A stretch of 59,518 bases of DNA from a virus (lineage: Duplodnaviria > Caudoviricetes), in the IMG/VR virus record IMGVR_UViG_3300048672_000363, positions 1 through 59,518 of that record; one strand, given 5' to 3'. Positions 9,518 to 38,193 of the stretch are shown one piece after another. The position numbers were made by a program, and so were the translations under genes. Position 1 is the first letter of the stretch; each line of letters starts with the position of its first letter. Below the pieces are notes generated by a model. The model did not search any database. It worked only from the letters and a program-made list of their open reading frames with translations, and was not told where the DNA came from.

Positions 9518-10051
9518 ATGGCACGCCCAGCTAAACTAACAGAAGAGATGAAGACAGAAGCCGCCCAGCGAATTGTTGATGGCGGCATTACCTATGAGGC
9601 TTTAGCAAAAGAGCTTGGCGTGTCCAAGCCGTGCCTGATAAAGAACGTTTCTGACCGAGTGAATAAATTAAAAGCCGCAGCGAATCAAATAGTTGCGACT
9701 GCAAACGCCCTTAGTTTATTACCAGTAAATGACCGAGGGTCAGCAATCAACCTAGCACAGACATTGCTTTACATGGCTAATAACATGGCAAGCACTTCCG
9801 GCAAAATGTCTAGAGCATCCGACCGCCTTGCATCGTTAGTCGAGAAACGAGTAGATACCCTAGAAGATATTGCACAAACAGGCGCGGGAATCACAACAGA
9901 GGATATTCAGCTAACGCTTGGGTCAATCCGTATGGTAAACGAAGCAAGCCAAACGCCGCTGAAGATGATGGACTTAGCCAAAGAGTCCATTAACAACCAA
10001 AAAGAATCCGTAAATACACCCACTAGAATCGTCGTGTGCGCGCCAGAATGA
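9518..10051 (+). CDS. terS: terminase small subunit (putative)
   Basis: MARPAKLT.. N-terminal HTH, helical body, directly overlapping TerL. Confidence 0.7.
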   Translation: MARPAKLTEEMKTEAAQRIVDGGITYEALAKELGVSKPCLIKNVSDRVNKLKAAANQIVATANALSLLPVNDRGSAINLAQTLLYMANNMASTSGKMSRASDRLASLVEKRVDTLEDIAQTGAGITTEDIQLTLGSIRMVNEASQTPLKMMDLAKESINNQKESVNTPTRIVVCAPE

Positions 10052-11337: not shown

Positions 11338-11423
11338 ACGCGTTTATACAAAGCGATTTGAGCGATTAAAATAAGCTAGTCAACACCTACCCCTCGCCGA
11401 TATGGCGACATGAAAGGCTAAAA

Positions 11424-13751
11424 ATGGAAAACGAAAAAGAACAAGAAGAACATCCAGACACCGGAATGAGTGTTGATAAGTTCCGTGAAATCATCGAAAC
11501 GATCAAAGCACAGCCAAACTTTAGAGCCGCCGCCGACAAAGAGCATCGCTACTACGATGGCAAGCAACTTGATGATGATGTTGTTCGCCTTTACCAAAGC
11601 CTTGGGCGACAACCTTACATTGAAAACAACACAGCCCCAGCAATCAACCAAGCAATGTCTGTGGTGTTTACAGATGAGCGCGATTACCTAATCACCGCCG
11701 AAACGCCGGACGAAGAAGCCGAGCAACTCGCCCAAGCAATCAATCAAGAGCTACACCAAGTCGAATCAAGAACGTATGCCGACAATGCGTGCCGAGATGC
11801 CGCGCATGAAATGGGTGTGTGTGGGTTCGCGTTTGTAGAAGTGTCCCGCAACAAAGACCCGTTTGAGTACCCATACCGTGTAGAGGTTGCGCCGCGCAAT
11901 GAGATTTACTGGGATATGTTGTCAGTCGGCAAAGGCAAAGACCTTTCAAAAGCGCGTTGGATCGCCCGAAGACGCTGGTTAGATTGGCAAGATGTCGCCG
12001 CGCAGTTCCCAGATTTTCACGAGCAAATCAAAAATATGGCAGCACGCGGATCGGTGTTCGATGAATTCGAGCTACTGAGCGCGCAACTTTCAGGCGCGGG
12101 GCAAAATTCATTAAACGTACCCGTGCAAATGGAAGCTGTTGTTGGGCAGACTGGCGCGCCTTCAGCCGTAGCGTTTGCCTCACAGAATGCAATCCAGAAC
12201 GCATTTATTGGGCTGGAGCAGCAAGAATGGCGCGATGCCACTAAGTCTCGCGTGTTATTGCACGAATGCTGGTATCGAGTAAACGAAGACGTTAAGGTAA
12301 TTAAATACATTGACGGACGGGTTGAAGAGTTTGACGAAGACGATCCGCTCCACATGACCGAAGTCTCACTGTTCACCCAAGGCGATTCAAGCCTAATTTC
12401 AGAACTATCAATCACACGAACCAAGAAGATGCGGGTAAGCTACTGGCTTAATTCGCTGCGATTGCACGACGATTACAGCCCATTCCCACACAACGAATAC
12501 CCTTACGCGCCTTTCTTCGCAATTTCTGAGGATGCGACTGGCATTAAGTACGGACTTGCGCGCCCAATGATCCCAATGCAAGACGCGATTAACACCCTAA
12601 CCGCGAAGTTGATGCAAGGATTAGGCTCTGTTCGCGTCACGCGCACCGAAGGCGCGGTACGAATGACTGACGACCAAGTGCGTGAAAGTGCCGGATTAAC
12701 TAACGCGGATTTCGTGTTGGACGAACACTTCACCCGTGACGGACATATCTTTAAGCTGGAACGTGATTACGAGCTATCAAGTCAGCACTTGCAGGTGCTA
12801 AACGAATCCCGCGCAGCAATCAAAGCCGTTGCTGGTGTTTACAACAGCGAAGGGCAAAACAAGCTCCAGCAGTCAGGTTTAGCCATTGCCACACTTGCAG
12901 AACAAGGCGACAAGGCATTAGCAATCATCATGGATGCCGCTGGGCGCGGGCGTAGAGCGGTCGGCGAATTGTTGTTGTCGTTGATTATTGAGGATTTTAA
13001 GCGCAAGGAAAACGCGCAGATTGTCATTAAGGGCGACGCATTCAAGGAGAGCGCGACCATTACGATCAACGAATCGGGCATTGACGATGAAGGCGGGGAA
13101 TATCGACGCAACGACCTATCGAAAGCGCGATTGCTGTTGAGCTTGTCGGATACACCGACAAGCTCAAGCTTCAAGAATCAGCAACTAGCAGCCATGAGCG
13201 AGGCTTATAAATCATCCCCGCCAGAATATCAGCGTGCGATGTTCCCTGAAATGCTGCGCCTAATGAACATCCCGAACAAGGATGAGATTATGAAAGCCGC
13301 ACGCGATGCAAGCGCAGCCGCAACACCTGAGCAGGTGCAACAACAAATTGATTCCGCTGTATCTCAAGCATTACAAAAGGCACAGACAGAGGCGAAAATG
13401 CGCGAGCTTGACCTCAAAGCTATGCTGAACGATGCGCAAATTAAGCTTGTTAATGCGCAAGCCGTTGAGGTTGGCGTAAAAGCAAGCTATGCCGCGATGC
13501 AAGCTGGTCAAGCCGTAGCAACGATGCCACAAATTGCGCCGATTGCCGACGTTGTAATGCAGACAGCAGGCTATCAACCACCCAATCCGTTAGGTGTTGA
13601 CCCAAACTTCCCACAGCCTAGCGGTGTAGTTGCACCAGCACCGGAAGTGGCGGAGAATACCAGCCCAGTCATGCCGCCCGTAGCACCAACACCAGAATCA
13701 CCGTTGCAAGGCGCGGAGCATGGGGTTGAAACTATGAGGAGCGATGCGTAA
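11424..13751 (+). CDS. portal protein (P22-like)
   Basis: 775 aa after TerL; YYDGKQL, N..PAIN, RWIARRRW, YPYAPF, YGLARPMIPMQDAIN, SGLAI motifs and a C-terminal Q/P-rich tail. Confidence 0.88.
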   Translation: MENEKEQEEHPDTGMSVDKFREIIETIKAQPNFRAAADKEHRYYDGKQLDDDVVRLYQSLGRQPYIENNTAPAINQAMSVVFTDERDYLITAETPDEEAEQLAQAINQELHQVESRTYADNACRDAAHEMGVCGFAFVEVSRNKDPFEYPYRVEVAPRNEIYWDMLSVGKGKDLSKARWIARRRWLDWQDVAAQFPDFHEQIKNMAARGSVFDEFELLSAQLSGAGQNSLNVPVQMEAVVGQTGAPSAVAFASQNAIQNAFIGLEQQEWRDATKSRVLLHECWYRVNEDVKVIKYIDGRVEEFDEDDPLHMTEVSLFTQGDSSLISELSITRTKKMRVSYWLNSLRLHDDYSPFPHNEYPYAPFFAISEDATGIKYGLARPMIPMQDAINTLTAKLMQGLGSVRVTRTEGAVRMTDDQVRESAGLTNADFVLDEHFTRDGHIFKLERDYELSSQHLQVLNESRAAIKAVAGVYNSEGQNKLQQSGLAIATLAEQGDKALAIIMDAAGRGRRAVGELLLSLIIEDFKRKENAQIVIKGDAFKESATITINESGIDDEGGEYRRNDLSKARLLLSLSDTPTSSSFKNQQLAAMSEAYKSSPPEYQRAMFPEMLRLMNIPNKDEIMKAARDASAAATPEQVQQQIDSAVSQALQKAQTEAKMRELDLKAMLNDAQIKLVNAQAVEVGVKASYAAMQAGQAVATMPQIAPIADVVMQTAGYQPPNPLGVDPNFPQPSGVVAPAPEVAENTSPVMPPVAPTPESPLQGAEHGVETMRSDA

Positions 13752-13927
13752 TGGAAATGAACGAATACAAAATAAAGCTACAAGCGATACGGATGGACTT
13801 ATGGGTGAGGGTGTTTATGATTGATGTTCAGAAGCATGGCAATGGTTATGCGGCACGGGAAGCAGATGAGGCACTGGCGCGATTTGATGCGAATTTTGGC
13901 GAAGCAAAAACATTGACGCAAAAATAA
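13751..13927 (+). CDS. small hypothetical protein (58 aa)
   Basis: Manually read MEMNEYKIKLQAIRMDLWVRVF..ADEALARFDANF; start overlaps the portal stop. Confidence 0.5.
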   Translation: MEMNEYKIKLQAIRMDLWVRVFMIDVQKHGNGYAAREADEALARFDANFGEAKTLTQK

Positions 13928-14132
13928 AAGTATAGTAGAACGCTAAATAGTTTCACCTCGTCGCCTGAAAAGGTAAAGCCCCAACGGGAATAGATGACGA
14001 ACATCCTTAGATCGAAGTAATTTTTATTCGCTCGGTGGCTCAAAAAGCCATAGCCAAGCCCTTCGGGTGCGGCAAAAACGGAGGGCGGCGGTTGCTTAGT
14101 CGCCCAGTCTCAACCACCTTATGAGGTGCGCA

Positions 14133-14957
14133 ATGCTAGAATTAGTACTCAACCAAGACAACTACTTGGACGCGGATTACCCAGTTGAAGATTTAACCGA
14201 TGAACAGTTAATCGCTATCAGCAATGGCGAAGACGTTGTGATTAAGCGGGATGATGAACCAGTAGAAGACGCAAAGCCTGACGAAGAAGTGGCTTCAACG
14301 GAAGAGCAAGAACAACAAGAATCTGAACGTCGCGCCGAAGCAGAAACGGCTATTGCAGCAGCGACGGAAGAATTCAAGGCGACTGGTGACGACACTAAAA
14401 TCAAGGCTTTATTCGCCGATTACGCGGGCGATTACCCTGAATTCTTTTCCGAAATGGATAAGCAGTTAGCCCCTGTAATTGCAGAAATGCAAAAGCAAGC
14501 TGACGAAAACACCAAGGCACTGGCTGAATTAAAGGCTGAAAAAGCTCATGCCGAATATATGGCGCAAGTCGTCAAGGCTATTCCAGACTTCTATGAGTTA
14601 GGTTTGGTTGGCAAGGATAATCGCCCTTCTGACGCATTCACCGCATGGACGCAAGACCTGCCATACAAGCAAGTCCTCAAGTATCAGCAAGTCTTTGAGC
14701 GCGGTACTATCCAGCAAATCGCAGACATGGCGGCTGATTTTCGCGCATCAAAAGAACCTCAAAAGACTGACAAGCCGACCTTCAAGCAGGGAAAGCAAAA
14801 CCCATCCACAATTTCAGATATTGGCGCACCCGCTGGCAATCAATCGGCTGGTATTAGCCCGTTGGATATGACACCAGACCAAGCCCAAGCCTTTTACGCC
14901 AAGCAGTTCGCGGCTGGCGCGAGCTTTGCCGACCTACTGAAACGCACTGGGCTGTAG
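14133..14957 (+). CDS. scaffolding protein (putative)
   Basis: Acidic coiled-coil protein between portal and capsid; GAGG RBS before ATG 14133. Confidence 0.7.
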   Translation: MLELVLNQDNYLDADYPVEDLTDEQLIAISNGEDVVIKRDDEPVEDAKPDEEVASTEEQEQQESERRAEAETAIAAATEEFKATGDDTKIKALFADYAGDYPEFFSEMDKQLAPVIAEMQKQADENTKALAELKAEKAHAEYMAQVVKAIPDFYELGLVGKDNRPSDAFTAWTQDLPYKQVLKYQQVFERGTIQQIADMAADFRASKEPQKTDKPTFKQGKQNPSTISDIGAPAGNQSAGISPLDMTPDQAQAFYAKQFAAGASFADLLKRTGL

Positions 14958-15052
14958 GAAAAGGAGGGGCAAAATGAAGTGATCTCTCTAAATAAGCAAT
15001 AGCAAAACCACATAACGTCGTGATGACGTGATAATCCTTTAAGGAGCATAAA

Positions 15053-16384
15053 ATGGTAGCAACTTTCATACCGTGGGGCGACCCCAAGGCAATCGTCAAG
15101 CAGTCCGCAATGCTGACTGCGGCAACTCGCCAACCAACCACAGCACTTGCCCGCTTGCAAGGCGCAATGCCACAAGATGCGGATGTCCTACGCGACATGA
15201 GCAAGTATTCAACCAGCCCAAATTACCCTATCGTGCTGCACACTGACTTCACAAAAGTTGCTGGCGACACGGTGCGCGTTGACAACCTTGACCCGTTGGT
15301 TGGTTATCCGGTAATGGGCGGTCAATATATTTCCGGCACTGGCAATGCCATGACGTTTAGCACTGATTCGTTGCGAATTGAGGTATCCCGTAAGGCGATT
15401 AACCTTGGTACAGCGATGACGCAACAACGTACCATCCACCAGTTGCGAGCGATTGCGCTGGAAATGGCGAAGAGCTACTTCGTCGGCGTACAGGATCAGC
15501 GCGCATTTGTTCACATGGCTGGTGCGCGTGGCTTCCATCAAGGCGCGGAGTGGAATGTGCCTTTAGCCTCGCATCCTGAATTCGCCAACATCATGGTTAA
15601 CCCAGTCGCAGCACCTGTAAACGTGCGCCACTATGTCGCCAATGCAACAACCGGACTGGCTAAAGTTGCGCCCGTGGCAGGTGTAATGAACTTGGCTACG
15701 ACCGACGTGCTGAATACAAACGTGCTGGATGCGTTGCGTGGACTGATTGATTCTGACCACTTCACCATCCCCCCAGTTCGCTTTGACGGTGATCCGTTGG
15801 CGTATGACGACCCGCTGCGCGTGCTGCTGGTATCCCCGCAACAATACACCACGTTTATCCAGTCTGGCACTGGCACAAATGCGGTTCGTACCCTGATCGG
15901 CGCATCATTGGAACGCGCAAGCTCAATGAACAAACATCCTTTGTTTTTGGGCGGCTCGTTGCTGTGGAACGGCATCCTGATTGTGAAGATGCCTAAGGCT
16001 ATTCGCTTCTACGGTGCAGACCCTATCCAGTATTGCGCAGACCCTGCGACAGTTGTTGAATCTACCGCGACAGTTCCGGCGGCTTTCACTGCGGCTAATT
16101 TCGCAGTTGACCGCGCTATCCTGTTGGGCGGCAATGCTTTGGCTCATGCCGTCGGCAAACTGAAGCTGCAATCGACAATCGCGGAAGAGGATATTCTCGG
16201 CAAGTTATCCATCATGGTGACGGAAGAAGTGACCGACCACATGATGCGCAATGAAATCGCCGTCACCTCTTTGGACGGGTACAAGAAAATGCGTTTCTTG
16301 CAAAACATCGGCAACAATCAAAGCCGCTGGATTGAGAACTGCATCGTCATTGACACCGCCGTTCCGGTTGTAGCTGGCGTTTAA
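15053..16384 (+). CDS. major capsid protein (DUF4043/N4-gp56-like)
   Basis: 443 aa; AGDTV, MTQQRTIHQLR, HMAGARG, HPLF.G..LWNGILI and VDRAILLG motifs; strong TAAGGAG RBS. Confidence 0.88.
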   Translation: MVATFIPWGDPKAIVKQSAMLTAATRQPTTALARLQGAMPQDADVLRDMSKYSTSPNYPIVLHTDFTKVAGDTVRVDNLDPLVGYPVMGGQYISGTGNAMTFSTDSLRIEVSRKAINLGTAMTQQRTIHQLRAIALEMAKSYFVGVQDQRAFVHMAGARGFHQGAEWNVPLASHPEFANIMVNPVAAPVNVRHYVANATTGLAKVAPVAGVMNLATTDVLNTNVLDALRGLIDSDHFTIPPVRFDGDPLAYDDPLRVLLVSPQQYTTFIQSGTGTNAVRTLIGASLERASSMNKHPLFLGGSLLWNGILIVKMPKAIRFYGADPIQYCADPATVVESTATVPAAFTAANFAVDRAILLGGNALAHAVGKLKLQSTIAEEDILGKLSIMVTEEVTDHMMRNEIAVTSLDGYKKMRFLQNIGNNQSRWIENCIVIDTAVPVVAGV

Positions 16385-25869: not shown

Positions 25870-28800
25870 ATGCCTACACCAGATATTGATTCGATTATTA
25901 ACGACTTCGACAATCTAGACAAGCCACAGCAATCACCCGCGCCTGTAGTAAATGGCAAGGGACTAAAACCAAAGAGCTCAGGGCTATACGAGTTCGGAAA
26001 GCAGCTAGTTGGTGGTGCTGTTAATGCAGTCCCTGAAATGGTTAGTGCCGCTGGCATGGGTTTGACGCGCTCTGCACTTGGCGAGGACAACGAGGCGTTT
26101 AGAGCTTTTGAGAGTGGACGCATTGCAGCAAAAGAGCGAGCAAAAGAATGGGCTCCTGATTTAGAAGGTCGCGGCGAAGTATCAAAGGCGTTTATCAATG
26201 CGGCGGGTGCGATTGCCCCATCTGTTGCGCCTTTAGTGGCACTTGCCAATCCTATGGCTGCGGCTGGTGGAAGTGGCTTATTGTTTGGTGCGCAAGCATA
26301 CGAAGACGCACGAGAAAAAGCATTAGCCGCTGGGTTATCTAAGGATGAAGCGCATTCCTTGGGGATGAAAGAGGCTGCAATTCAAGGCGGCGGCGAGGCG
26401 GTTGCAAATAGATTGACCGCTGGATTATTTGGCGCGGGCAAAAACGCGGCAGCAGCAGGGATGAGGGGGTTAATCGGAAAGGCTACCGAGCAAGGCGTAG
26501 CAAAGCAATTCCTGAAGGCAGCCGCAGAAGCAGCTATTGGTGAACCACTAACAGAAATCGCGCAGGACACCGGAACAGCCGCCGTTGAGCGTTCTTATGG
26601 TCTAAAGACTGACGATTACGGGAAAATCGCATACGACAGCGGTACAACCGCGCTTGCGATGACTGCAATCCTAGCCCCGTTTGGCTTGCGATCCCACTAC
26701 AAAAACTCGGCGCAAGCAAAGTCGGTTGACACGGCGTTAAGCGACCCGACAGCGGCAACACGCGAACAGCGCGAACAAGTAGTTAATGACCTGTACAGCA
26801 AAGGAAAAGAGCAAGGCGCGAAAGATGCTGACGCTTGGTACGTAGGCGCAATGCAAGACGTTGCGGAAAACAAACCAATCCGCCGAGACGTTGTTGCCCC
26901 TGTCGTCACCCCAGAAGCCGAAGCCGCCGCAAAAGAACAAGCCGCATTAGGATTGCCTACGCTCAAAGACAATCCAGCTTATGTGTTTTCTGATGGCTCT
27001 ATCGGGACACAAGCCGACATTGATAATGAAGTTGCAAAGGCTGCACCAGCAGAGCGTGAAGCCAAACGCGCCGAAATCATGGCGGGTGGGCGGTATGTTG
27101 ACGATGCGCTTAATGTCGTACCCGAAACAATTGACTACACCAAGCCAAGCAAAGAAAAAGCAGAACTTGGATTAGCTCCAAAGGGTGCAACAATCACCCC
27201 GCAACAGGTAGATATTCCTGTAATTCCATACGTTCAAACGCCCACGTTAGACGCTGTGCGCAAAGAAAATCCGTTCGCTGGCGCAACACCGCAAACGCCT
27301 CTATCCTTGGCAGCAAGTGCCGCACACGTTAGTGGGGCAATCGAACAAGCGGCTACCGCAGCAACCACCCCGACAAGTACCCCGACAAGTACCCCGACAA
27401 GTACCCCGACAAGTACCCCGCTAGTAGGTCGTGACGCGCAAGCAGCCGCCGCATACAAAGCCCAACAAGCCGCCGACAAAGCACAAGGTAAACAGTTCGC
27501 AGCAGACTTGCAAGCAGAACAACGCCGTGCCAAAGAAAAAGCAACGGTTGAGGCAATGCGTGCCAAAGCCGCACAAGCTAAAGCAGATAGAGCCGCAGCA
27601 GCACAAACACAGGCGACCAAAGCACAACAGACTGGTCAGCTTATCGCGCAAGAATTAGCCAAGCGCAAAGCCGCGAAAGAACAACCGCAACCGCAAGGCG
27701 AATTCATTGATCGTGAAGAACCAACCACCACAAACCCACAAGACCTAATCAAGCCAAAGAAAGGCGCGGTTCAACAGCCGCAGCTTTCAGCAAGCGAAAA
27801 CGAAGTAATCGCCAAGGTTCAAACACGCGCCGACCAATTGGGCGCGCAGGTTAAGCGTGTTGGTTCAACCAAACTATTTGGTTATTTTGTCGGGAAGAAG
27901 AACAAAGGCTATTTAAACAGCACAGAAAGTGCCGTGTATGCCAAACAATTAAAGGCTAACGACGAAGCCAATAATCAACCTATCGCAACACCTGCGCCCA
28001 CCGCTACGCCTGCCGTAGTAGATGAAGAGTACAGTCAACAGACATTCGTCAATAAGACGCGCATGACTGGAAGAATGGGCGAGCCTGACACGCACTTCAT
28101 TATTGTAAAAAAAGGAACTGGAGAGGCTGTTAGTGGCGAAATTGAAAATACACCGCGCAACATAAACGCGTTAAACGCTAAGAAGTTGAATCGTGAAAAA
28201 TACGAAGCTATATCATTAGAGGAACGCCAACAGAGAATGGCGAAAGAGATTGAAAGCGGGTCAACTGCATACTACACGAAGCCACCACAGGAAGCCGCAC
28301 AAGCCGCTGAACCAGTCGCGACCGTAGCAAAGCAAGCAGAGAAAGAAGCGGAAGCCTTGCCGATCCGTGACGTAAGGATTGGCGATGAGCTGTTGCTTGA
28401 CGGTGAGACATACAAAGTAACTGGAACAATTAAAGACGGGGTGAAAGCTGAAAGAGATTCAGGCGAGTATCAAACAACAGTACGCCTTGTGCATGGCGAT
28501 GACGTAATCCGCGCAAAGATTGCCGCAGAAAATTCCGCGCCAGTAGAGCAACCAGAAGCAAAAGCAGCGAAAGAATCTGGCAATGCAAACCTTCTCGAAG
28601 CCGCAAAGGAGATGGGAAACATTGAGTTTATTGGCTTTGGCGATAAGCAAAAGAAAGCAGAAGCAACACCAGCGTCAGCAATCGAATCAATTAAGGAATC
28701 GACTGAGCTTTCAAAAATTGAAAAGCTGCAAACAATCGCCGCCGTGAACAAGGGCGAGTTATCACCTTCCGATGTGCAGGGTATTATTGGAGAACAAAAT

Positions 28801-31800
28801 GCAAGCGATACACAAGCGGAATCTGTACCCAGCGGAACTAATCAAGCTGATCGAATCGGAGAGCGCGACGGGAATAAGTCGGGCGAACACTTGGATGCTG
28901 GGCTGGGAGAAGCGCGTCAAGGAACTGATCGCAGTGGGACAGTACGCGACAGCATTCAAGAACCAAGTGGAACAGGACAGGCAAGCGGACTTGCCGAATC
29001 TGAGTCACCTAACTCCACGGGAAAAACGGGAGATGCTGGGAATGACGGAAGAGTGTCCGATGCCGAGCTAAACCACGAAATAACCGAAGAGGACAGCGTA
29101 GGTAGTGGGACAAAAGACAAGAAGTTTAACGATAACATTGAGGCTATCAAGATACTCAAAGAGTTGGATGACGAAAACCGACCCGCTACACCAGCAGAGC
29201 GTAAGTCTTTGGCGAGATATGTTGGCTTTGGCGGGTACGCTTCGGCATTCGACTCGCAAAACAAAGCATTTGCGAAGCATTACCAAACACTCAAAGGCTT
29301 GTTAAACGACGACGAGTTTAAATCAGCCCGTGCGTCCGTCAATAACGCCTACTACACCAGCAAAACCATTGTTGATGCCATGTATAAAGCGGTTAGCGGC
29401 TTTGGTTTTAATGGTGGGCGCATCCTTGAGCCTTCTTTGGGGTCTGGAAACTTCTTTGGCATGATGCCAAGCACAATGCGCAATGCGTCAAACCTGCGCG
29501 GCGTAGAGCTTGACCTGTTGACCAGTAAGATAGCAAAAGCACTTTATCCTAAAGCTAATGTGGCAGTTGCTACAGGATTTCAGGAATACCAAGTGCCAAG
29601 CGGTCATTTTGATATGGCTATCGGCAATCCGCCTTTTGGCAATGAGAGCGTCCCAACCAGAGAAAAGACCGAGTATTCAGGTTTTAGTATTCACAACTAC
29701 TTTATTTCGCGCATGATAGACAAGGTGCGCGACGGCGGGATTGTTCCTGTTATCGTATCGCATAGCTTTATGGATTCCCTTGATCCAAAAGCGCGGCAAT
29801 ACATCGCAAGCAAAGCAAACCTCATCGGCGCGGTACGCTTGCCTAGTTCAGCTTTTAAAGAAAATGCTGGTACTGAGGTAATCACTGACATTCTTTTCTT
29901 CCAAAAGACCGCCACTCCTGAAAAGAACCCATCTTGGGTGAATTCTAGCGACATCTACCTAACAGAAGCAAAGACTGGCACAGAGCAGCGCGTCACTGAA
30001 AACACATACTTTGCCAAAAACCCACAAAACATCTTGGGCGAAAAGGGCTTGGCTAACTCTCAATTCGGCTTTAAGTACAACGTAAAATCAAACGGCGACC
30101 TCAATAAACAACTAGCATCGTTTATTGAGTCATTGCCTAAAAATATCTACACGCCCATTGAGCGCACAACAAGCGAGCTGGATAGCGTAGATAACACTAT
30201 TCCTGATGGCGTAAAGCAAGGTTCGTTCTATGTGGCAGAAGATGGGACTGTAAAGCAGCGAGGCGAAGATATTGCTGGTGAGAAAACAGCAACGTTATGG
30301 ACTCCAAAAAACGAAATGGCAGCGGATCGCATGAAGGGTATGATTCGGCTTCGTGAAAAACTGCGCACGTTAATGTCTTTAGAGCAAGATGCTAACGCGA
30401 GTGAAAAGCAAATTGAGCTTCATCGCCAGTTATTGAATACCTCCTATGACAACTTCAAGAAGAAATACGGCTTTGTAAATAGCCAACTAAATCGCATCCT
30501 GTTTATGGATGATACTGAGGCGGCATTATTGCAGTCCATAGAGTTCGACTATGACAAAGGCGTTTCAAAGGCTGTTGCGGCTTCACGCGGCACAGAAGAG
30601 CGCGCACCTTCTGCCACTAAGGCGGACATCATGCAACGCCGTGTCTTATTCCCTTACGCTCAAAGAACCAAAACAACTAATGCGAAGGATGCCCTGCTTG
30701 CATCATTGGATGAAAAAGGGCGTATTGATATTGATTACATGGCTGAACTTTACAACAAGCCGAAAGATGAGATCGTCAAAGAGCTTGGTGATTTGGTTTA
30801 TTTTGACCCTGCAACTGATGACTATGTTTCCAGCGATGAGTACCTATCAGGCGATGTTAAAAGCGCATTGGAACTTGCTAAGAAGTCTGCATTAGAAAAT
30901 CCTGCATACAACCGTAATGTGAAAGCACTGGAAAAGGTTATCCCGTCTGACAAGATTCCAAGCGAGATTCATGCGCCTATTGGTGCGGGGTGGATACCAA
31001 GCAAGGTTTATAGCGACTTTGTGAAGTCACTTATTGGCGGAAATCCAAAGGTTGACTATAACCATGTATCAGCAACAGGTGGGTGGGTTAATAGTGGAAT
31101 CTTGGGCAATGCTGATTCTGCAAAAATGAACACAGACTTTGGCACTGAAAAGATAAGTGCGTTTGATATTTTCAACTTGCTTATGGATGGCAAGTCCCCT
31201 GACTTGAAAAAAACAATAGGTAGCGGACAAGACAAACGCACTGTTTCTGACGTTGAAGGAACAGAGGCGGCGCGGGACAAAGCGAATAAAATTAAGGATG
31301 CGTGGAGTACATGGCTATGGCAGGACGGCGATAGATCAACGCAGTTGTCTGACATATTTAACGAAAAGTACAACCGCATCATTAACCGAAAATATGACGG
31401 GCAACACTTGGTACTTCATGGCGCATCGCCTGTTATCAAGATGTATAAACACCAAAAGAATGCGGTGTGGCGCATCGTGCAAGATGGCAAGACGTTATTG
31501 GATCATGTTGTAGGGGCTGGTAAAACTTTTGTTATGGTTGCCTCAGTCATGGAAAACAAACGGCTAGGAAAGGCGCGTAAGCAGCTCATAGTCGTGCCTA
31601 ATCACTTGACCATGCAGATACGCAGCGACTTTGCACGTCTTTACCCATCCGCTAATGTATTGGCGGCTACTCCAGAAGATTTTAGCAAAGATAACCGCGA
31701 GCGGATGTTTGCTAAAATTGCACTGGGTGATTACGACGCTGTGATTATCGGGCATTCTTCGTTGGCTAAAATCGGATTATCTGTAGAGATTCAAGAGCAG

Positions 31801-34800
31801 ATTTATGGCGAACAGCTAGACGAAATAACCGACGCTATTGAAGCCGCTAAACGCGCCAATGGTGATCGCGGGATTGTTGGCGCAATGGAAAAGATTAAAG
31901 CCAATTTGCAAACAAAAATGACCAAGCTGATTGATAAAATTGGCGAGAGCGACAAGGTTGTGACATTCAACGAGTTAGGTATTGACGGATTGTATGTAGA
32001 TGAAATGCACGAATTCAAAAACCTATTTTTTAGAACATCCATGAACCGCGTGGCAGGTTTAGGAAATCCAGAAGGATCGGGCAAGGCATTTGACCTGTTC
32101 GCTAAAATCACATGGCTGAATAAAACCTATAATGGCAAAGCTCCGTTAGTAGCTGCCACAGGAACGCCAGTGTCAAACTCATTGGCTGAAATGTACACCA
32201 TGCAGCGGTATATGCAGTACGACCACATGAAAGCACAAGGTACGCACTTGTTTGATGATTGGGCGCGTATGTTTGGCGAGGTTGAAACGCTTTACGAGGT
32301 GTCAACTTCTGGTGTTGGATATAGGCAGTCGCAACGGTTCTCTAAGTTCAAGAACCTACCTACGCTTATGGCTGACTACAACACATTCACCGATACAGTC
32401 ACGCTTGACGACCTGAAACAAAACTCAAAAGACGAAGGCAAGATTTTCCCTGTGCCAAAGATCGAAGGTGGAAAGCCGACAAACATTGTCGCAGAACGCT
32501 CACCAGACCAAGAGAGATACTTCGGCATTCCTTTTGTGGCACGGCTTGAGGATGACAACAGCATTATCTATAAAATAAACTACGAAAATGCAAAGGTAGA
32601 GCAAAGCAAAGACGGAAAGTGGATTTTAAGCGACGGACGCACATCGTCTTCCTACGAAACAAAAGAAGAGGCTGATGTTGCGCTGGTTGAAGGTGCGCTA
32701 ACGCCTGTTGTTGAGATCGACCCGAATACATTGCTTGGTAAATTTGCAAACCTAGCCGAGCTTACAAGGCAATCAAAAGGAAAGATTAACGCCCTTTCGC
32801 TTACCAGCCTAGCAAGCAAGGCGGGTTTGGATATGCGAATTATCGACCCTGCAATGCCTGACTTTGAGGGCAGCAAGATAAATAAAGCAATAGGTCAGCT
32901 CATGCGCCTATACAAGAGGTTTGATAAGGTAAAAGGCACTCAGATTGTATTTTGTGATTCATCCGTCCCACTATCAGCGCGTAAAGCAATGGGAGCTAAA
33001 GAGCGCAGGTTGTTTGTGCGTGATGACAACGGAGATATTATCCATAAAAAAGGCACTGTAAACACAATAGAAGGCTACGAGGGCTTTCCGTTCTATCTGG
33101 TAAAGACTGGTAAAGGCGAGAGCGCGAAGATTACCGCTTATGAGCCTGTGTCTGGTTCGGTATTGTTTAGTGGCGTAGATAGAAAAAGCGTCATGGAAAC
33201 TATTGATAACTCACTGACCAATGAAAGAATGCGCGAAAGATGGCTGGACATTAGAGGTCGCCGCCCAGCAATCACCGAAGAGGAATTGGCAGAATACCGC
33301 GAAGCCAAAGAGCTTGATGTAGCAGAAGACGGAAGCAACGAAATTAGCTTGGATGACGTAGAAGCGGTATCTGGCTCTAGCCAATTCTCAGTGTATGACG
33401 ATATGCGCGACAAGCTGATTGCGCAAGGTGTACCAGAAAACGAAATCGCTTTCATTCACGATTACGATACTCCAGCCAAAAAGGACGCGCTATTTAAAAG
33501 CATGAAGCGCGGCGGTGTGCGGTTCTTATTTGGATCAACTCCAAAACTAGGCGCGGGAACTAACGTGCAAGACCTTATCGTCGGTATTCATCATATAGAT
33601 GCGCCGTGGAGACCGTCCGACTTGGAGCAGCGCGAAGGGCGCGGCATACGTCAAGGGAATAAATTAGCCTATGATGAAAACGGCAAACCTATAGCTGGCT
33701 TTGAGTTGTTTATTGGGCGTTATGCAACATCACAAACTTATGACACTCGCCGTTGGCAGTTATTGCAACACAAGGCGACTGGAATTGAGCAACTGCGCAA
33801 GTATGATGGTCAGTTGGAGATTGACGACGTAGCTGGTGAAGCATCTAACAGTGCTGATATGAAAGCCGCAACGTCAGGTAATCCGTTGATACTTGAGGAA
33901 ACGCGCCTTAATAATGAGGTTAAACGCTTAGTATCATTGCAAAAAGCACACGCTGATAGTATGCAATCAATGCACCGCCAGTTGAATAACAACAAGGCAA
34001 TGGTTGACAAGATACTACCAAGGAATGCACAAGAGCTTACTGCAAACATTGCCGCGTCTGAGAAGCACCCAAAGAAAACAGGGAAGGATATAGCGCAGTT
34101 TTCAAGCGGAAGCAGCAAAGCTAAAACACGCGAAGCGGCAGAAAAGATCATCAAAGAGTTTGCATATAAACTACGCTTAGGTTCAATAATTTCATCAAAT
34201 GTTAATTATCGCGGGGTTGATTTCATTGTTGAAAGCCATAGAACAAGTGAGATAACTATTTCTGCTGGCGAAAATACGTTTGCAGTGTATGGCTTGAAAG
34301 ATGACATATCACCTAGTGGATTTATTACCCGCCTAGATAACTACATCGAAAGTATGGGAGCGCGTCTTTCTGCCGTTAATCGTGAAATTGAAAAGGCACA
34401 AGAAGAGATTAAAAGTGTGTCTAGCAGAATCAATGCGCCGTTTGAAGAGCTTGGGACACTGGAAAGAGCTAGATCAGCACACGCATGGACACGCCGCCGA
34501 CTGTTGAAATCAACTCAGCTAGATTCAATTCCTGTTAATGAGCGTCCAGCATTTGAGAGAGAGCAAGAATCGCGCAAGGCTGAATTAAGGAAGCGTGGTT
34601 TTGGTGCGGCTATTGATGAATTAGAAAAACAGTCTTCGCACGAAGGCGTTAAGTTTAGCAAAGGCGATACATCATCAAACAACCACACAATCCAATCCGC
34701 CACGTCATCCATTGAACAATCGGTAAGCGGCATTGAAGGCGGCGCGGTTAATGCCATGCTGCAATCAGGCAAGCTAAAGGTAATCAGCCGTGCAAAGTCT

Positions 34801-37800
34801 CGCTTGATGATCGGCGCGAACCGTTCAATCAGCGACGCAATGATTAAGCAGGGCGTTAAAACTGGGATGTGGAACAGGGTTCAAGGGTTCTACAATCCAA
34901 CTGACGGCATAACCTATGTGGTATCTGAAAACATCCCAAAGAATTACACCGCCCAACAGTGGCGCGGCTTGCTTCGCCATGAGATAGCTGTTCACGCTTA
35001 CTACTTAGGCAAAGATAACGCTGAATTCGCGGGTGTGTTGCGTCAAGTCAAGTCATTGCGCAAGATTGATAGCCGCGTAAATGCCGCGTATGTGCGCGCA
35101 GAAATGGCTAAGACATCCGCCGATATGATGGATGAAGAGGCTCTAGCCTACTTGGTTCAACACAATAAAGACCTGCCACTGGTTAAGCGCGTGTTCGCAT
35201 GGTTCAAAAACGCATTGCGCGAACTTGGCTTGAAACTTCCAGTAATGCAGCGCGCCCCGTTTATGAAGTGGGCGAATAGCTTGACAGTGGATGACTTGCA
35301 ATTTATGGCGGAACAGGCGATGAGCGGCGGGCAGTTTAATCCAGATGGCGAGGTTGCATTCTCACAAGCCACTGATGAAGAGGTGCGGGAAACCGAAGTC
35401 CCAAAAGAAACACGTCCGCAAATCGCGCAACGCGTCGTACAGGACAAGATGAACCGCTTCCGCACCATCGCCGAATGGGCGAAGACGCAAGGAAAAGAAA
35501 TATCCGAAGCGGCTAATGTGTGGCTACATGAAGGCAACATGGCGGCGAAGATTGCTAACCGTCAGGAAGACTTCAATACCAAGGTACAAGAGCCGTTAAT
35601 CGCACGGATGCAAAAGGCTGGATATACCCAAGCACAGGTTGAAGAGTTCATGCTGGCACAGCATACCGCCGAGGCGAACAAACGCGCCCGTTTAATCCAC
35701 CGCGACCCAAACAAAACAGCGTTTGGAGTGACCGATGAAGAAGCCGCCGAAGTGTTAGCGGAATATGCCAAGACTGCGAACTTCAAAGAGCTTGAAAGTA
35801 TCGCGGCGGACACGCGCAAGATTACCAAGGAAACACAACGCATTCAGTTGAAATTCGGCTTGAAGTCGCAGGAAGAAATTGACGCACAGAATGCTACCTA
35901 TGAATTCTATGTGCCAGTGAAGGGCGACGGAAAGGACAACGCAAGCGGCACAGGTAAAGGATTGTCGGTCAATGCCAAGGATAAACGCCGCATGGGTCAT
36001 GGCTTGCGCGATGAGTATGTGCTAGAGAACATTTTTCGCGACCACATGAGAGCGATCTCACTTTCTGAAAAAAACGTAATCAGCGGCATCGTGGCGCAGT
36101 TCCTGAATGAAATCGGTGATGCGCGTATCGGCACAGTCGGTCAGCCCGTCAAAAAGCAAGTCTTTGTTGATGGCGCGACGCATTACATGGTGACATACCA
36201 CGGAAGCGACGTAAACGGCTTTGCTAACCTCAAGGATGCGCGGCAATACATTGAGCTGGAATCTGCGCGTTACGGTCGTGGCAAGGCTGATTTTTCAATC
36301 CAGACCACTAAGGATGCTGGGCGCGTGCGGCTGGTTGCCTCGCCCATGCTTGCAGAAAACGAGATCATCTACTACCAAGACGGTAAGGAGGTGCGCATCC
36401 AGTTGAACGACGCTACCCTAGCCCGTGCCGCGACTAACCTTGGCGTGGAACATTTAGGCTTGTTGCTGTCAGGGGCGAAGCGCGTAAACCGCTTTTTGTC
36501 CATCGCTTACACTGGCTGGAATCCTGAATTCGCACTAAAGAACCTGACACGCGACTTTATTGCTGGGGCGATTAACCTTGCGGGTGATTACGGCGTAGGT
36601 ATGACCGCCAAGATTTACGGCAACTACGGCAAGGCATTCAAGGAGCTGATTAAGCACATAGGCGATCCGTCAAAATCCGAACTGCTGACCAACTACCGCG
36701 CAGATGGCGGGAACACGGGCGGCGCATGGTTGCCAGACATCGAACGAATCAGCACCGAGTTTCAAGCCAAGTACAACGAGTTCGCGGGGTTTATGGCTAC
36801 ACATCAAAACGTGTACGAACGTGCCATTGATGAAGGCAAAAGCAAGACCGTTGCTGAATTGAAAGCATACGCGGCGGCATCGGCGGCACAGGCTAAACGA
36901 CTTCCTGTTATCGGTCACTTCCTGAAATTGATGGAAAAGGTAAACGCGGTGACGGAAAATTCACTACGCCTAGCCACATACATGACGTTGCGCGAGAATG
37001 GCTTTAGCCGTGCCGAATCTGCCAAAGCAGCCAAGCAATCCACGGTGAACTTTAACCGCAAGGGTGAGATAGGCGCACAAGCGGGTGCGTTGTATCTGTT
37101 CTTTAACCCTTCCGTTCAAGGCACAGCACGGGTATTTGAAACGCTTGCAACCTCGAAACACAAAGGACAGGCACAGGCTTTAGTCGGCATGATGGCTTTG
37201 TCCGCATTCGCACTTGCCGAGGCTATGCGCGGTGGCGACGATGACGACGAGGACAAGTGGAAAAAAATACCTGACGGCATCAAGGATAGAAATCTGGTAT
37301 TTAAGTTTGGCGATACCGAGTTTATGATCCCTATTCCTTATGGCTACGGCGTAGCGCACACCCTTGGAAATGTGTTGTCTGACGTAATGCACGGGGAGAA
37401 CAAGTGGAAAGCAAGCATCCGCATGACGGACGCTATTCTTGGCAACTTCTCGCCAGTTGGCAATCCATTTGAAGGCGGTGAAGCTACGCCAACCAACCTA
37501 ATGCCGACGCTTTCAAAAATGGCAACTGCGCCAGAAATGAACAAGAACAACTTCGGCAATCCTATTCAGCCCGACAAGTTCAACGAGTTCGCGCCCGATA
37601 GTTGGAATATGTACCGAAAGACAAAAGGCACGTTGTACGCTGACGTGGCGGCTGGAATGAACGCCATGACGGGCGGGTCGAGCTACGAAAAAGGCAAGAT
37701 TGATATTTCCCCCGAAGTGCTGCGCTTTTGGGTGGAATCATTGACGGGCGGCACAGGGCGGTTCTTTGCTGACACGTTAAGCCTTGGCAGTGTGGCATTA

Positions 37801-38193
37801 CAAGGCGGGGTGGACACGGTAGAATTAAAAGAAGTGCCTATCGCCCGTGGTTTTGTGAGAACTGAAAGCATCACAGATTCCCGTGCAGCGTTCTACAAAT
37901 CGGCAACCGAAGCCAAAGAAGCAGCGGCAGAATTCAAAGGCGCGATTAAAGCCAAAGATTTTGAAGCAGCCAAGGCTATGCGAGAAGAGCGCGGCGACCT
38001 AATCGCCCTTGCAAGCTACGCAACAAAAGTGCAAACTATGGCGCGAGCAAAACGTGATATGATTGACGCAATAAAAGCCGACGAATCATTGACATTATCG
38101 CAACAACGTGAGCGCATGAAGTTCGTTGAGGCGCAAGAGCAAGCGGCATATGATACTTTCTTAAAGGTCTTCAATGACAGAGCCTCAAAATAA
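25870..38193 (+). CDS. giant DarB-like polyvalent virion protein (N6-adenine MTase + SNF2 helicase + metallopeptidase-like motif + LPD38-like domain)
   Basis: 4107 aa. MTase motifs ILEPSLGSGNF and IGNPPF. SF2 motifs DHVVGAGKT, VDEMHEFKN, ATGTP and WRPSDLEQREGRGIRQGN. GFYNP..LLRHEIAVH peptidase-like motif. C-terminal VNFNRKG..LYLFFNPSVQG..IPIPYGYG. Confidence 0.9.
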   Translation: MPTPDIDSIINDFDNLDKPQQSPAPVVNGKGLKPKSSGLYEFGKQLVGGAVNAVPEMVSAAGMGLTRSALGEDNEAFRAFESGRIAAKERAKEWAPDLEGRGEVSKAFINAAGAIAPSVAPLVALANPMAAAGGSGLLFGAQAYEDAREKALAAGLSKDEAHSLGMKEAAIQGGGEAVANRLTAGLFGAGKNAAAAGMRGLIGKATEQGVAKQFLKAAAEAAIGEPLTEIAQDTGTAAVERSYGLKTDDYGKIAYDSGTTALAMTAILAPFGLRSHYKNSAQAKSVDTALSDPTAATREQREQVVNDLYSKGKEQGAKDADAWYVGAMQDVAENKPIRRDVVAPVVTPEAEAAAKEQAALGLPTLKDNPAYVFSDGSIGTQADIDNEVAKAAPAEREAKRAEIMAGGRYVDDALNVVPETIDYTKPSKEKAELGLAPKGATITPQQVDIPVIPYVQTPTLDAVRKENPFAGATPQTPLSLAASAAHVSGAIEQAATAATTPTSTPTSTPTSTPTSTPLVGRDAQAAAAYKAQQAADKAQGKQFAADLQAEQRRAKEKATVEAMRAKAAQAKADRAAAAQTQATKAQQTGQLIAQELAKRKAAKEQPQPQGEFIDREEPTTTNPQDLIKPKKGAVQQPQLSASENEVIAKVQTRADQLGAQVKRVGSTKLFGYFVGKKNKGYLNSTESAVYAKQLKANDEANNQPIATPAPTATPAVVDEEYSQQTFVNKTRMTGRMGEPDTHFIIVKKGTGEAVSGEIENTPRNINALNAKKLNREKYEAISLEERQQRMAKEIESGSTAYYTKPPQEAAQAAEPVATVAKQAEKEAEALPIRDVRIGDELLLDGETYKVTGTIKDGVKAERDSGEYQTTVRLVHGDDVIRAKIAAENSAPVEQPEAKAAKESGNANLLEAAKEMGNIEFIGFGDKQKKAEATPASAIESIKESTELSKIEKLQTIAAVNKGELSPSDVQGIIGEQNASDTQAESVPSGTNQADRIGERDGNKSGEHLDAGLGEARQGTDRSGTVRDSIQEPSGTGQASGLAESESPNSTGKTGDAGNDGRVSDAELNHEITEEDSVGSGTKDKKFNDNIEAIKILKELDDENRPATPAERKSLARYVGFGGYASAFDSQNKAFAKHYQTLKGLLNDDEFKSARASVNNAYYTSKTIVDAMYKAVSGFGFNGGRILEPSLGSGNFFGMMPSTMRNASNLRGVELDLLTSKIAKALYPKANVAVATGFQEYQVPSGHFDMAIGNPPFGNESVPTREKTEYSGFSIHNYFISRMIDKVRDGGIVPVIVSHSFMDSLDPKARQYIASKANLIGAVRLPSSAFKENAGTEVITDILFFQKTATPEKNPSWVNSSDIYLTEAKTGTEQRVTENTYFAKNPQNILGEKGLANSQFGFKYNVKSNGDLNKQLASFIESLPKNIYTPIERTTSELDSVDNTIPDGVKQGSFYVAEDGTVKQRGEDIAGEKTATLWTPKNEMAADRMKGMIRLREKLRTLMSLEQDANASEKQIELHRQLLNTSYDNFKKKYGFVNSQLNRILFMDDTEAALLQSIEFDYDKGVSKAVAASRGTEERAPSATKADIMQRRVLFPYAQRTKTTNAKDALLASLDEKGRIDIDYMAELYNKPKDEIVKELGDLVYFDPATDDYVSSDEYLSGDVKSALELAKKSALENPAYNRNVKALEKVIPSDKIPSEIHAPIGAGWIPSKVYSDFVKSLIGGNPKVDYNHVSATGGWVNSGILGNADSAKMNTDFGTEKISAFDIFNLLMDGKSPDLKKTIGSGQDKRTVSDVEGTEAARDKANKIKDAWSTWLWQDGDRSTQLSDIFNEKYNRIINRKYDGQHLVLHGASPVIKMYKHQKNAVWRIVQDGKTLLDHVVGAGKTFVMVASVMENKRLGKARKQLIVVPNHLTMQIRSDFARLYPSANVLAATPEDFSKDNRERMFAKIALGDYDAVIIGHSSLAKIGLSVEIQEQIYGEQLDEITDAIEAAKRANGDRGIVGAMEKIKANLQTKMTKLIDKIGESDKVVTFNELGIDGLYVDEMHEFKNLFFRTSMNRVAGLGNPEGSGKAFDLFAKITWLNKTYNGKAPLVAATGTPVSNSLAEMYTMQRYMQYDHMKAQGTHLFDDWARMFGEVETLYEVSTSGVGYRQSQRFSKFKNLPTLMADYNTFTDTVTLDDLKQNSKDEGKIFPVPKIEGGKPTNIVAERSPDQERYFGIPFVARLEDDNSIIYKINYENAKVEQSKDGKWILSDGRTSSSYETKEEADVALVEGALTPVVEIDPNTLLGKFANLAELTRQSKGKINALSLTSLASKAGLDMRIIDPAMPDFEGSKINKAIGQLMRLYKRFDKVKGTQIVFCDSSVPLSARKAMGAKERRLFVRDDNGDIIHKKGTVNTIEGYEGFPFYLVKTGKGESAKITAYEPVSGSVLFSGVDRKSVMETIDNSLTNERMRERWLDIRGRRPAITEEELAEYREAKELDVAEDGSNEISLDDVEAVSGSSQFSVYDDMRDKLIAQGVPENEIAFIHDYDTPAKKDALFKSMKRGGVRFLFGSTPKLGAGTNVQDLIVGIHHIDAPWRPSDLEQREGRGIRQGNKLAYDENGKPIAGFELFIGRYATSQTYDTRRWQLLQHKATGIEQLRKYDGQLEIDDVAGEASNSADMKAATSGNPLILEETRLNNEVKRLVSLQKAHADSMQSMHRQLNNNKAMVDKILPRNAQELTANIAASEKHPKKTGKDIAQFSSGSSKAKTREAAEKIIKEFAYKLRLGSIISSNVNYRGVDFIVESHRTSEITISAGENTFAVYGLKDDISPSGFITRLDNYIESMGARLSAVNREIEKAQEEIKSVSSRINAPFEELGTLERARSAHAWTRRRLLKSTQLDSIPVNERPAFEREQESRKAELRKRGFGAAIDELEKQSSHEGVKFSKGDTSSNNHTIQSATSSIEQSVSGIEGGAVNAMLQSGKLKVISRAKSRLMIGANRSISDAMIKQGVKTGMWNRVQGFYNPTDGITYVVSENIPKNYTAQQWRGLLRHEIAVHAYYLGKDNAEFAGVLRQVKSLRKIDSRVNAAYVRAEMAKTSADMMDEEALAYLVQHNKDLPLVKRVFAWFKNALRELGLKLPVMQRAPFMKWANSLTVDDLQFMAEQAMSGGQFNPDGEVAFSQATDEEVRETEVPKETRPQIAQRVVQDKMNRFRTIAEWAKTQGKEISEAANVWLHEGNMAAKIANRQEDFNTKVQEPLIARMQKAGYTQAQVEEFMLAQHTAEANKRARLIHRDPNKTAFGVTDEEAAEVLAEYAKTANFKELESIAADTRKITKETQRIQLKFGLKSQEEIDAQNATYEFYVPVKGDGKDNASGTGKGLSVNAKDKRRMGHGLRDEYVLENIFRDHMRAISLSEKNVISGIVAQFLNEIGDARIGTVGQPVKKQVFVDGATHYMVTYHGSDVNGFANLKDARQYIELESARYGRGKADFSIQTTKDAGRVRLVASPMLAENEIIYYQDGKEVRIQLNDATLARAATNLGVEHLGLLLSGAKRVNRFLSIAYTGWNPEFALKNLTRDFIAGAINLAGDYGVGMTAKIYGNYGKAFKELIKHIGDPSKSELLTNYRADGGNTGGAWLPDIERISTEFQAKYNEFAGFMATHQNVYERAIDEGKSKTVAELKAYAAASAAQAKRLPVIGHFLKLMEKVNAVTENSLRLATYMTLRENGFSRAESAKAAKQSTVNFNRKGEIGAQAGALYLFFNPSVQGTARVFETLATSKHKGQAQALVGMMALSAFALAEAMRGGDDDDEDKWKKIPDGIKDRNLVFKFGDTEFMIPIPYGYGVAHTLGNVLSDVMHGENKWKASIRMTDAILGNFSPVGNPFEGGEATPTNLMPTLSKMATAPEMNKNNFGNPIQPDKFNEFAPDSWNMYRKTKGTLYADVAAGMNAMTGGSSYEKGKIDISPEVLRFWVESLTGGTGRFFADTLSLGSVALQGGVDTVELKEVPIARGFVRTESITDSRAAFYKSATEAKEAAAEFKGAIKAKDFEAAKAMREERGDLIALASYATKVQTMARAKRDMIDAIKADESLTLSQQRERMKFVEAQEQAAYDTFLKVFNDRASK
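27367..27420. repeat. perfect 12-bp tandem repeat ACCCCGACAAGT x4.5 (TPTS)
   Basis: Directly visible; in frame within the linker of the giant protein. Confidence 0.95.
28799..29071 (+). CDS. candidate overprinted 90-aa gene nested in the +1 frame of the giant gene
   Basis: GGAG SD 7 nt before ATG 28799. The product MQAIHKRNLYPAEL..ANTWMLGWEKRVKELIAVGQY..HLTPREKREMLG is globular-looking, while the host frame here is a low-complexity linker. Confidence 0.6.
   Translation: MQAIHKRNLYPAELIKLIESESATGISRANTWMLGWEKRVKELIAVGQYATAFKNQVEQDRQADLPNLSHLTPREKREMLGMTEECPMPS

Follow-up and report, generated by a model that had tools for sequence, protein, structure and literature searches.

Introduction

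DarB-type proteins, in which LPD36, a methyltransferase and a SWI2/SNF2 ATPase are joined (P1 DarB, Bcep22 gp75), were described as a dyad of polyvalent proteins by Iyer et al. 2017 (PMC5512222). P1 DarB is packaged in the virion and protects from type I restriction, and enzymes of this type are thought to travel with the DNA, methylating it against type I restriction (PMC9024508, PMC5512222). Ulx, a separate 17-kDa virion protein of P1, aids the localization of DarB (PMC9024508), while no homologues of the P1 accessory proteins are known in the Lessieviruses, according to a paper on phage JC1, in whose virions a homologue of the giant protein studied here is present (PMC9144972). Here we describe a small gene that almost certainly lies, in another frame, inside the gene of a DarB-like giant protein in the virus record IMGVR_UViG_3300048672_000363. 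The window, that is, the whole stretch of 59,518 nucleotides analyzed, is a 59.5-kb phage record estimated to be 96% complete. The giant shares with the described dyad an NPPF methyltransferase, an SNF2-like ATPase, LPD38 and the position in the virion module; its NPP(Y/F) adenine methyltransferase is fused to the SWI2/SNF2 ATPase, and a conserved cap precedes the methyltransferase at the position of LPD36, although the LPD36 model itself gave no match. Unlike the window giant, the P1-like darB of D6 has neither an upstream extension nor a nested gene.

Prokaryotes and their viruses have few long genes that lie wholly inside another gene on the same strand. To our knowledge, two families that proved relevant to this locus, TnpV and DUF1896, have been catalogued without a tested function. 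The Rz/Rz1 spanin genes form an embedded pair on the same strand in the +1 frame (PMC9144972). The gene described here is likewise fully embedded on the same strand in the +1 frame, but differs from Rz/Rz1 in that it is the inner gene that encodes a fold, the outer frame giving a linker, in that it occurs in both phages and plasmids, and in that the inner gene escapes and survives alone. On the basis of homology with lambda Xis, a helper role in excision has been postulated for TnpV (PMC3158075), and TnpV-carrying elements integrate into snf2 of S. suis integrative and conjugative elements (ICEs), for a reason that the authors call unclear (PMC9815147). Embedded genes such as Rz/Rz1, the TnpV and DUF1896 families and the host dyad were thus already known; the ANRWMLGW branch, the frame-specific selection, the link to 2APL, the tandem nested copies and the evidence for escaped free copies are new. 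We found no description of nesting in DarB-like genes in the literature that our searches reached; the text of PMC5512222 contains neither "overlap" nor "TnpV".

Results and Discussion

A conserved gene nested in the DarB-like giant

The 90-codon open reading frame (ORF) that starts at 28799 (Table 1) is almost certainly a real, conserved gene nested in the DarB-like giant, to judge from its sequence features, and its translation is predicted. It lies wholly inside the coding sequence of the giant on the same strand, and its offset of 2929 places it in the +1 frame. Among the off-frame ATG ORFs of at least 60 codons inside the giant, only this one has a 4-nt match to a Shine-Dalgarno (SD) sequence. 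The aligned starts of the homologues coincide with 28799 and not with 28772, and, of 32 nested homologues inspected, most have a purine-rich SD-like leader upstream of the aligned start, pointing to a conserved start and ribosome-binding site of its own. A sigma-70-like site at 28759–28787, upstream of the small gene, was dismissed as being at chance level (2 found, 1.1 expected).

A first-pass annotation made from the letters alone had already proposed this ORF, and its length, stop codon and quoted translation were confirmed on the sequence, as were the GGAG and the ATG; the spacer between them is 6 nt, however, and not 7. That annotation also had the ORF end where the methyltransferase-associated region begins, and NHEITEED does start at 29071. 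The impression of a folded, helical product agreed with an AlphaFold model of the window small product (P0001), which has five helices (pLDDT, the predicted local distance difference test, 89.6; pTM, the predicted template modeling score, 0.77). Large hydrophobic residues make up 10% of the giant frame over the overlap, compared with 27% of the whole giant and 30% of the small product, in line with the hydrophobe-poor linker noted earlier.

The search for homologues found relatives by both routes: phmmer listed 42 family relatives of about 85–100 amino acids (aa) at E ≤ 1e-3 (a 43rd was a spurious repeat protein), and a profile search found 198 family members among 1,961 candidates. The ANRWMLGW core is near-invariant across the family, which had no match in Pfam, PHROG, NCBIfam or the PDB sequences and matched only unnamed clusters in the ESM Atlas. 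All 36 viral loci found by the small-protein pattern are nested in a long ORF open in the –1 frame, and in 35 of them a methyltransferase follows about 100–160 codons downstream in the same ORF; the remaining locus reaches the contig edge.

Two kinds of comparison indicated that both frames are under selection. In nine close pairs (disjoint, author-chosen and compared without gaps over 85 codons), changes numbered 33, 28 and 111 at the first, second and third codon positions of the small frame, corresponding to 48 residue changes in the small protein versus 128 in the giant frame, with all nine pairs in the same direction, although they are not independent trials because the pairs are related. 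This bears out the proposal that the small frame carries the constraint, and a wider pair table agrees with it except for two near-identical pairs. The giant frame, in turn, is kept open. Synonymous shuffling of 50 distinct nested copies predicted 188 stops in the giant (–1) frame and none was observed, and T occurs at 0 of 867 sites where the giant would stop and at 14% of other sites; for the genome loci, which were classed by their open frame, these open-frame tests are circular, whereas for the 36 viral loci they are not. The overlap showed three variants in four DNA runs, two of them silent in the small frame and one in the giant frame, which are too few to weigh, and frame-keeping indels upstream of the overlap were seen in one low-depth contig.

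A giant-frame start lies near the small stop in only 3 of 58 loci, so the giant must be read through the overlap; re-initiation at the methyltransferase after the small stop was rejected on the same ground. No separate small protein would be made if a +1 ribosomal frameshift joined the N-terminus of the giant to the small domain or if the frame were an untranslated relic. In-frame fusions of the small domain to N-terminal parts of giants do occur in two database records, PBC5 orf33 (L193) and the LPD37-type protein P0159, which may be real split giants or sequencing frameshifts. Such a reading is extremely improbable in view of the start codons, which coincide in the alignment and follow SD-like leaders, of upstream stops that come as near as 15 nt, and of the ongoing purifying selection on the small frame.

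Distribution among giants selected by the enzyme

The pre-methyltransferase linkers of other giants were read in 80 viral loci picked via the methyltransferase alone, of which 79 were testable for an upstream +1 ORF. With the criterion of a +1 ATG ORF of 75–140 codons with an SD match, ending within 400 nt before the enzyme, a gene was found just before the methyltransferase in 67 of the 79 loci, compared with none of the 79 in the +2 frame and 0–7 of 55–79 loci at 23 other offsets, among which the +300 offset overlaps the same ORF. All 17 loci with at least 50% enzyme identity carry the ANRWMLGW family nested, although most are contigs already in the small-protein set. The arrangement spans enzyme identities of 36–66% and recurs in plasmids from Proteobacteria, Campylobacter and Ruminococcus. 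Fourteen named records were inspected. A clear nested ORF is present in Bcep22, PEp14, VvAW1, pTet, pBN4 and a plasmid from Citrobacter; in pRUMAL02 a nested TnpV lies about 1,000 codons upstream of the enzyme, and BKO1-TP3 and pGKT3 have unassigned candidate ORFs. Phage 8P carries a nested gene of the ANRWMLGW family itself. The gene is unannotated in 8P, Bcep22, PEp14 and VvAW1, as was anticipated for standard gene callers.

A diverged second small gene in the +1 frame stands in tandem directly upstream of the first in five loci (L019, L020, L033, L034 at about 9690–9960, and L077 at 2130–2410); therefore, the overlap has been duplicated inside the giant. Other +1 ORFs were also noted within giants. 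L159 has one of 184 codons inside the open frame of the giant, about 1,625–1,070 nt upstream of the methyltransferase, which we take to resemble an HNH endonuclease, and L163, L171, L180, L184 and L194 have extra +1 ORFs upstream of the TnpV-like gene; these have SD-like leaders, and some may be second nested genes.

Two plasmid copies that are annotated as stand-alone genes turned out to be nested: the big ORF extends upstream across them and its annotated start had been shifted, so that annotations keeping the small gene truncated the N-terminus of the giant. The small gene starts only 26–258 codons after the beginning of the plasmid giants, so that nesting is possible without fusion to a virion protein, contrary to the early suggestion that an operon of the small gene and the methyltransferase/helicase had been fused to one. 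The unannotated N-terminal extensions of two plasmid giants (L002, 7568–8000; L003, 1323–1770) are mutually conserved and start with a QLDLF motif, presumably a sliding-clamp-binding motif.

These plasmids also bear on whether the small protein loads the giant into capsids, as does P1 Ulx, which is likewise a small protein encoded with darB. The late-module position, the part played by Ulx in DarB localization (PMC9024508) and the lack of known P1 accessory homologues in Lessieviruses (PMC9144972) would suit such a factor. The nesting is identical on plasmids, however, and an Ulx-like packaging role, raised in the first-pass annotation, is excluded for plasmid members because plasmids have no capsid. 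The small protein also showed no similarity to Ulx in PHROG and NCBIfam scans, in which it had no match and to which a direct comparison with Ulx itself was not added, and the nested gene is absent from the P1-like D6 darB. Capsid loading is a very improbable function.

Possible relationship to TnpV and DUF1896

Profile matches link the nested products in a single chain that points to TnpV (PF14198) of Tn4451-type mobilizable elements. The ANRWMLGW family matched the PEp14 type (P 66%, E 6e-5) and the Campylobacter/Citrobacter/Paraburkholderia plasmid type (P 78%), and the PEp14 type matched a TnpV-like set (P 96%) and another nested set (P 97%); the direct match between the ANRWMLGW family and TnpV is weak (P 7%), the link being transitive, and reversed controls all gave P < 1%. 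Among 42 distant nested products, 4 passed the Pfam cut-off for TnpV (27 bits) and 4 more matched at E < 0.001, while P0001 and 31 relatives had no TnpV match. TnpV resembles the small family in size and in a helical W/Y-x4-P-x3-L-x3-G-x-L core; the small family differs in an extra N-terminal Y-P helix and in being nested, whereas TnpV lies beside a recombinase.

A moderate link to DUF1896 (2APL), which we had presumed beforehand, was found through the PEp14-type model, whose helix order is that of helices 2–5 of P0001. In a search of 48,161 chains, its top match was PG0816/DUF1896 2APL (Z 7.0, root-mean-square deviation 3.0 Å, 73 aligned residues; next Z 5.0), a Z of 7 being within the range that common arrangements can reach. 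For the P0001 model, 2APL was not among the 50 best fold matches (best Z 4.9), nothing clear was found by Foldseek against PDB and viral models, and several resemblances to sigma-2 domains (Z 3.0–4.6) were set aside as noise. The small family has no Pfam match to DUF1896 (PF08989) and no sequence-profile link to it, one distant nested ORF matches the DUF1896 Pfam model at E 0.005, and a PDB-sequence search with distant nested ORFs returned designed repeats only. DUF1896 differs from the nested proteins in a further C-terminal part and in being free-standing.

All three DUF1896 genes examined follow an integrase. In a Prevotella record (L217 and L220; NZ_CP072340.1, 110728–132977), integrase-integrase-DUF1896 elements lie between methyltransferase and helicase C-terminal ORFs and upstream, and appear to have inserted into methyltransferase/helicase genes. 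A position of DUF1896 immediately upstream of the methylase, which we had expected, was not confirmed by the single record inspected. The adjacency to integrases, the relaxases and integrases near free copies, and the excision role postulated for TnpV (PMC3158075) would fit an accessory of recombination or mobility resembling Xis. We consider this function quite unlikely. The phage copies sit in the late virion module, and the small proteins are all-helical and mostly acidic (median isoelectric point 5.4), unlike the basic winged-helix excisionases.

Free-standing copies and the autonomous-function alternative

Homologues do exist in proteobacterial mobile elements, as suggested in the first-pass annotation for proteins with an ANRWMLGWP-like motif. 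The 70 genome loci comprise 20 nested ones, a broken nested locus (L091) and 49 situated outside any giant; no giant remnant was found downstream of the free copies, apart from that of L091, which was reclassed accordingly. In a tree built on 93 columns, with many forks open, free and nested copies interleave with 16 label changes, at least 9 of them forced by supported branches. The –1 frame of 47 distinct free copies holds 55 stops against 179 expected, 20 copies being fully open, whereas neighboring-gene controls have stops at 81% of expectation; at risk sites, T has an odds ratio of 0.35, versus 0.79 in the controls. Taken separately, several clades show this avoidance of T, although the Oxalobacteraceae clade does not. 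Because free copies retain the avoidance of –1-frame stops, and because nucleotide similarity between free and nested copies ends at the edges of the small gene, we infer that the free copies of the ANRWMLGW branch are mostly repeated escapees from the nested state, rather than representatives of a free gene that later became nested.

The free copies have neighbors of several kinds: relaxase-LPD7 genes, integrases, HAD_SAK_2 and ParE, as well as a DEDDh-like exonuclease family that adjoins them with translational coupling in 15 of 50 loci. A fusion of the small protein to HAD_SAK_2 was observed. Type I HsdR lies near free copies in 5 of 50 loci, and single neighbors matched type III, type IIG-like, Hachiman, PDC-S11 and AbiLi/AriA systems. 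An 11-member Nitrosospira clade (L051–L055, L058–L060, L068, L075 and L076) carries the free gene on chromosomes with a common 35-nt leader, several members lying near uvrC-pgsA, and the gene is possibly domesticated there. In two other genomes (L206 and L207, with L042 and L069), the free gene stands beside a relaxase and a methyltransferase-helicase without a detected nested gene is encoded elsewhere; these are candidates for a partnership in trans.

Such observations make an autonomous function the main rival to the role as a brake or chaperone of the enzyme that is set out below. The small protein would then be a mobile-element accessory acting on a host target, in anti-defense or host modulation, that has hitch-hiked in the mRNA of the giant since an old read-through event. 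The clean, gene-sized escapes, the label changes on the tree, the coupling, fusion and ParE neighbors, the chromosomal Nitrosospira clade and the diverged tandem copies would all be expected of it, as would the genomes with free copies in which no DarB-like methyltransferase was found. It leaves unexplained the persistence inside methyltransferase-SNF2 genes from Proteobacteria to Bacillota, and also the targeting of snf2 by TnpV elements (PMC9815147). We hold an autonomous function to be less likely than not, but only slightly less probable than the role as a brake or chaperone.

A proposed brake or chaperone of the methyltransferase-SNF2 module

We tentatively favor a role for the small protein as a co-expressed brake or chaperone of the methyltransferase-SNF2 module, reused in trans by hitch-hiking elements; its binding to the module is predicted, and we hold this role to be somewhat short of an even chance. 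Ribosomes reading the giant would pass the overlap as a floppy linker, while others, as the conservation suggests, would initiate at the internal GGAG/ATG and translate the same mRNA into a helical protein of 90 aa, separate from the giant. The small gene would be the older, folded, TnpV/DUF1896-like frame, and the linker an overprint that may have arisen once an N-terminal extension was translated across the small gene. Nesting would tie the small gene and the enzyme inseparably. A translocating methylase made in bulk would need restraint or escort, for which secretion chaperones offer an analogy, and an acidic helical partner from the same mRNA would fit, holding the module restrained or soluble within the cell that makes it, up to packaging or transfer of the giant. 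Escaped copies in mobilizable elements, defense islands and chromosomes might target, in trans, the enzymes of phages and conjugative elements that enter the cell or already reside in it. The integration of TnpV elements into snf2 of S. suis ICEs fits such antagonism but does not show it. Also in favor of a link to the enzyme are the close association in position of the small gene with one enzyme clade, the mostly acidic character of the small proteins, the HsdR genes near some free copies and the Prevotella elements found between the methyltransferase and helicase halves. A complex prediction for the small protein with aa 1066–1520 of the giant gave a score of 0.01 (mark 0.32).

Several findings weigh against the role as a brake or chaperone. 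The window small product is neutral (isoelectric point 6.7). A DarB-like methyltransferase was found in 4 of 47 genomes with free copies, one of them being the broken locus, and not in the other 43, although many of these genomes, which represent 50 free-copy loci (three share genomes), are incomplete. The defense-neighbor figures are raw counts for which no background rate was computed, and the DUF1896 genes follow integrases, as described above. No nested gene was detected in D6, pTi, phi-SsuZKB4 and Prevotella, or at the methyltransferase loci L206–L209; the nested gene is not obligatory, since related enzymes exist without a detectable one. Methyltransferases of 89–90% identity are paired with small proteins of only 53–57% identity (L005/L007 vs. 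L035/L101), which disfavors tight co-evolution of the small protein and the enzyme. The partner or inhibitor originally suggested for the methyltransferase-helicase remains the best single hypothesis, but "dedicated" is too strong a word, given the survival of free copies in genomes in which no such methyltransferase was detected.

A broader version of the brake hypothesis, which we judge unlikely, is that the TnpV/DUF1896/ANRWMLGW superfamily is a general inhibitor of DarB-type enzymes, written inside its target gene like an entangled antitoxin and lifted out as a clean cassette by bacteria and hitch-hiking elements to disarm injected antirestriction enzymes (counter-counter-defense). If true, it would explain why TnpV elements target snf2 genes.

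The nested gene is common to well-studied phages (Bcep22, PEp14, VvAW1 and 8P) and conjugative plasmids, and could be the accessory factor that is missing for the DarB-like proteins of Lessieviruses. It points to an overlooked regulator of anti-restriction enzymes, gives a testable function for TnpV and DUF1896, and calls for caution when darB-like genes are deleted or recoded. It also provides a measurable case of genes born out of overlap, with the old second frame visible as a fossil.

Features of the window

The coordinates of the nested gene and of its surroundings are given in Table 1.

Table 1. Positions in the window of the nested gene, its host gene and the virion module.
Feature	Position	Strand	Remarks
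Nested gene	28799..29071	+	ATG 28799, TAA 29069-29071; +1 frame; predicted 90-aa five-helix protein of the unnamed ANRWMLGW family, remotely TnpV-like
Shine-Dalgarno-like GGAG	28789..28792	+	6 nt before ATG 28799
Alternative in-frame ATG (99-aa form)	28772..28774	+	Lacks an SD match; less favored than 28799
Giant-frame reading of the overlap, aa 977-1067	28798..29070	+	Polar, hydrophobe-poor linker, stop-free
DarB-like polyvalent giant, 4,107 aa	25870..38193	+	phrog_10089 DarB-like antirestriction; end of virion module
N-terminal cap (LPD36 position) and N6-adenine methyltransferase	29071..30070	+	NPPF aa 1253-1256; Eco57I match aa 1234-1322
SWI2/SNF2-like ATPase lobes, aa 1856-2596	31435..33657	+	ResIII, SNF2-related and Helicase_C matches
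LPD38 domain, giant aa 3794-3991	37249..37842	+	E 1e-30
Terminase large subunit, P22-like portal and major capsid genes	10036..16384	+	Upstream of giant, same strand

On the opposite strand, at 45916–48539, two stand-alone genes for DNA methyltransferases, one of them with DUF4942, lie side by side and are separate from the methyltransferase domain of the giant. Short tandem TPTS repeats were noted at about 27370–27420 (+), in the low-complexity N-terminal region of the giant (aa ~500–517).

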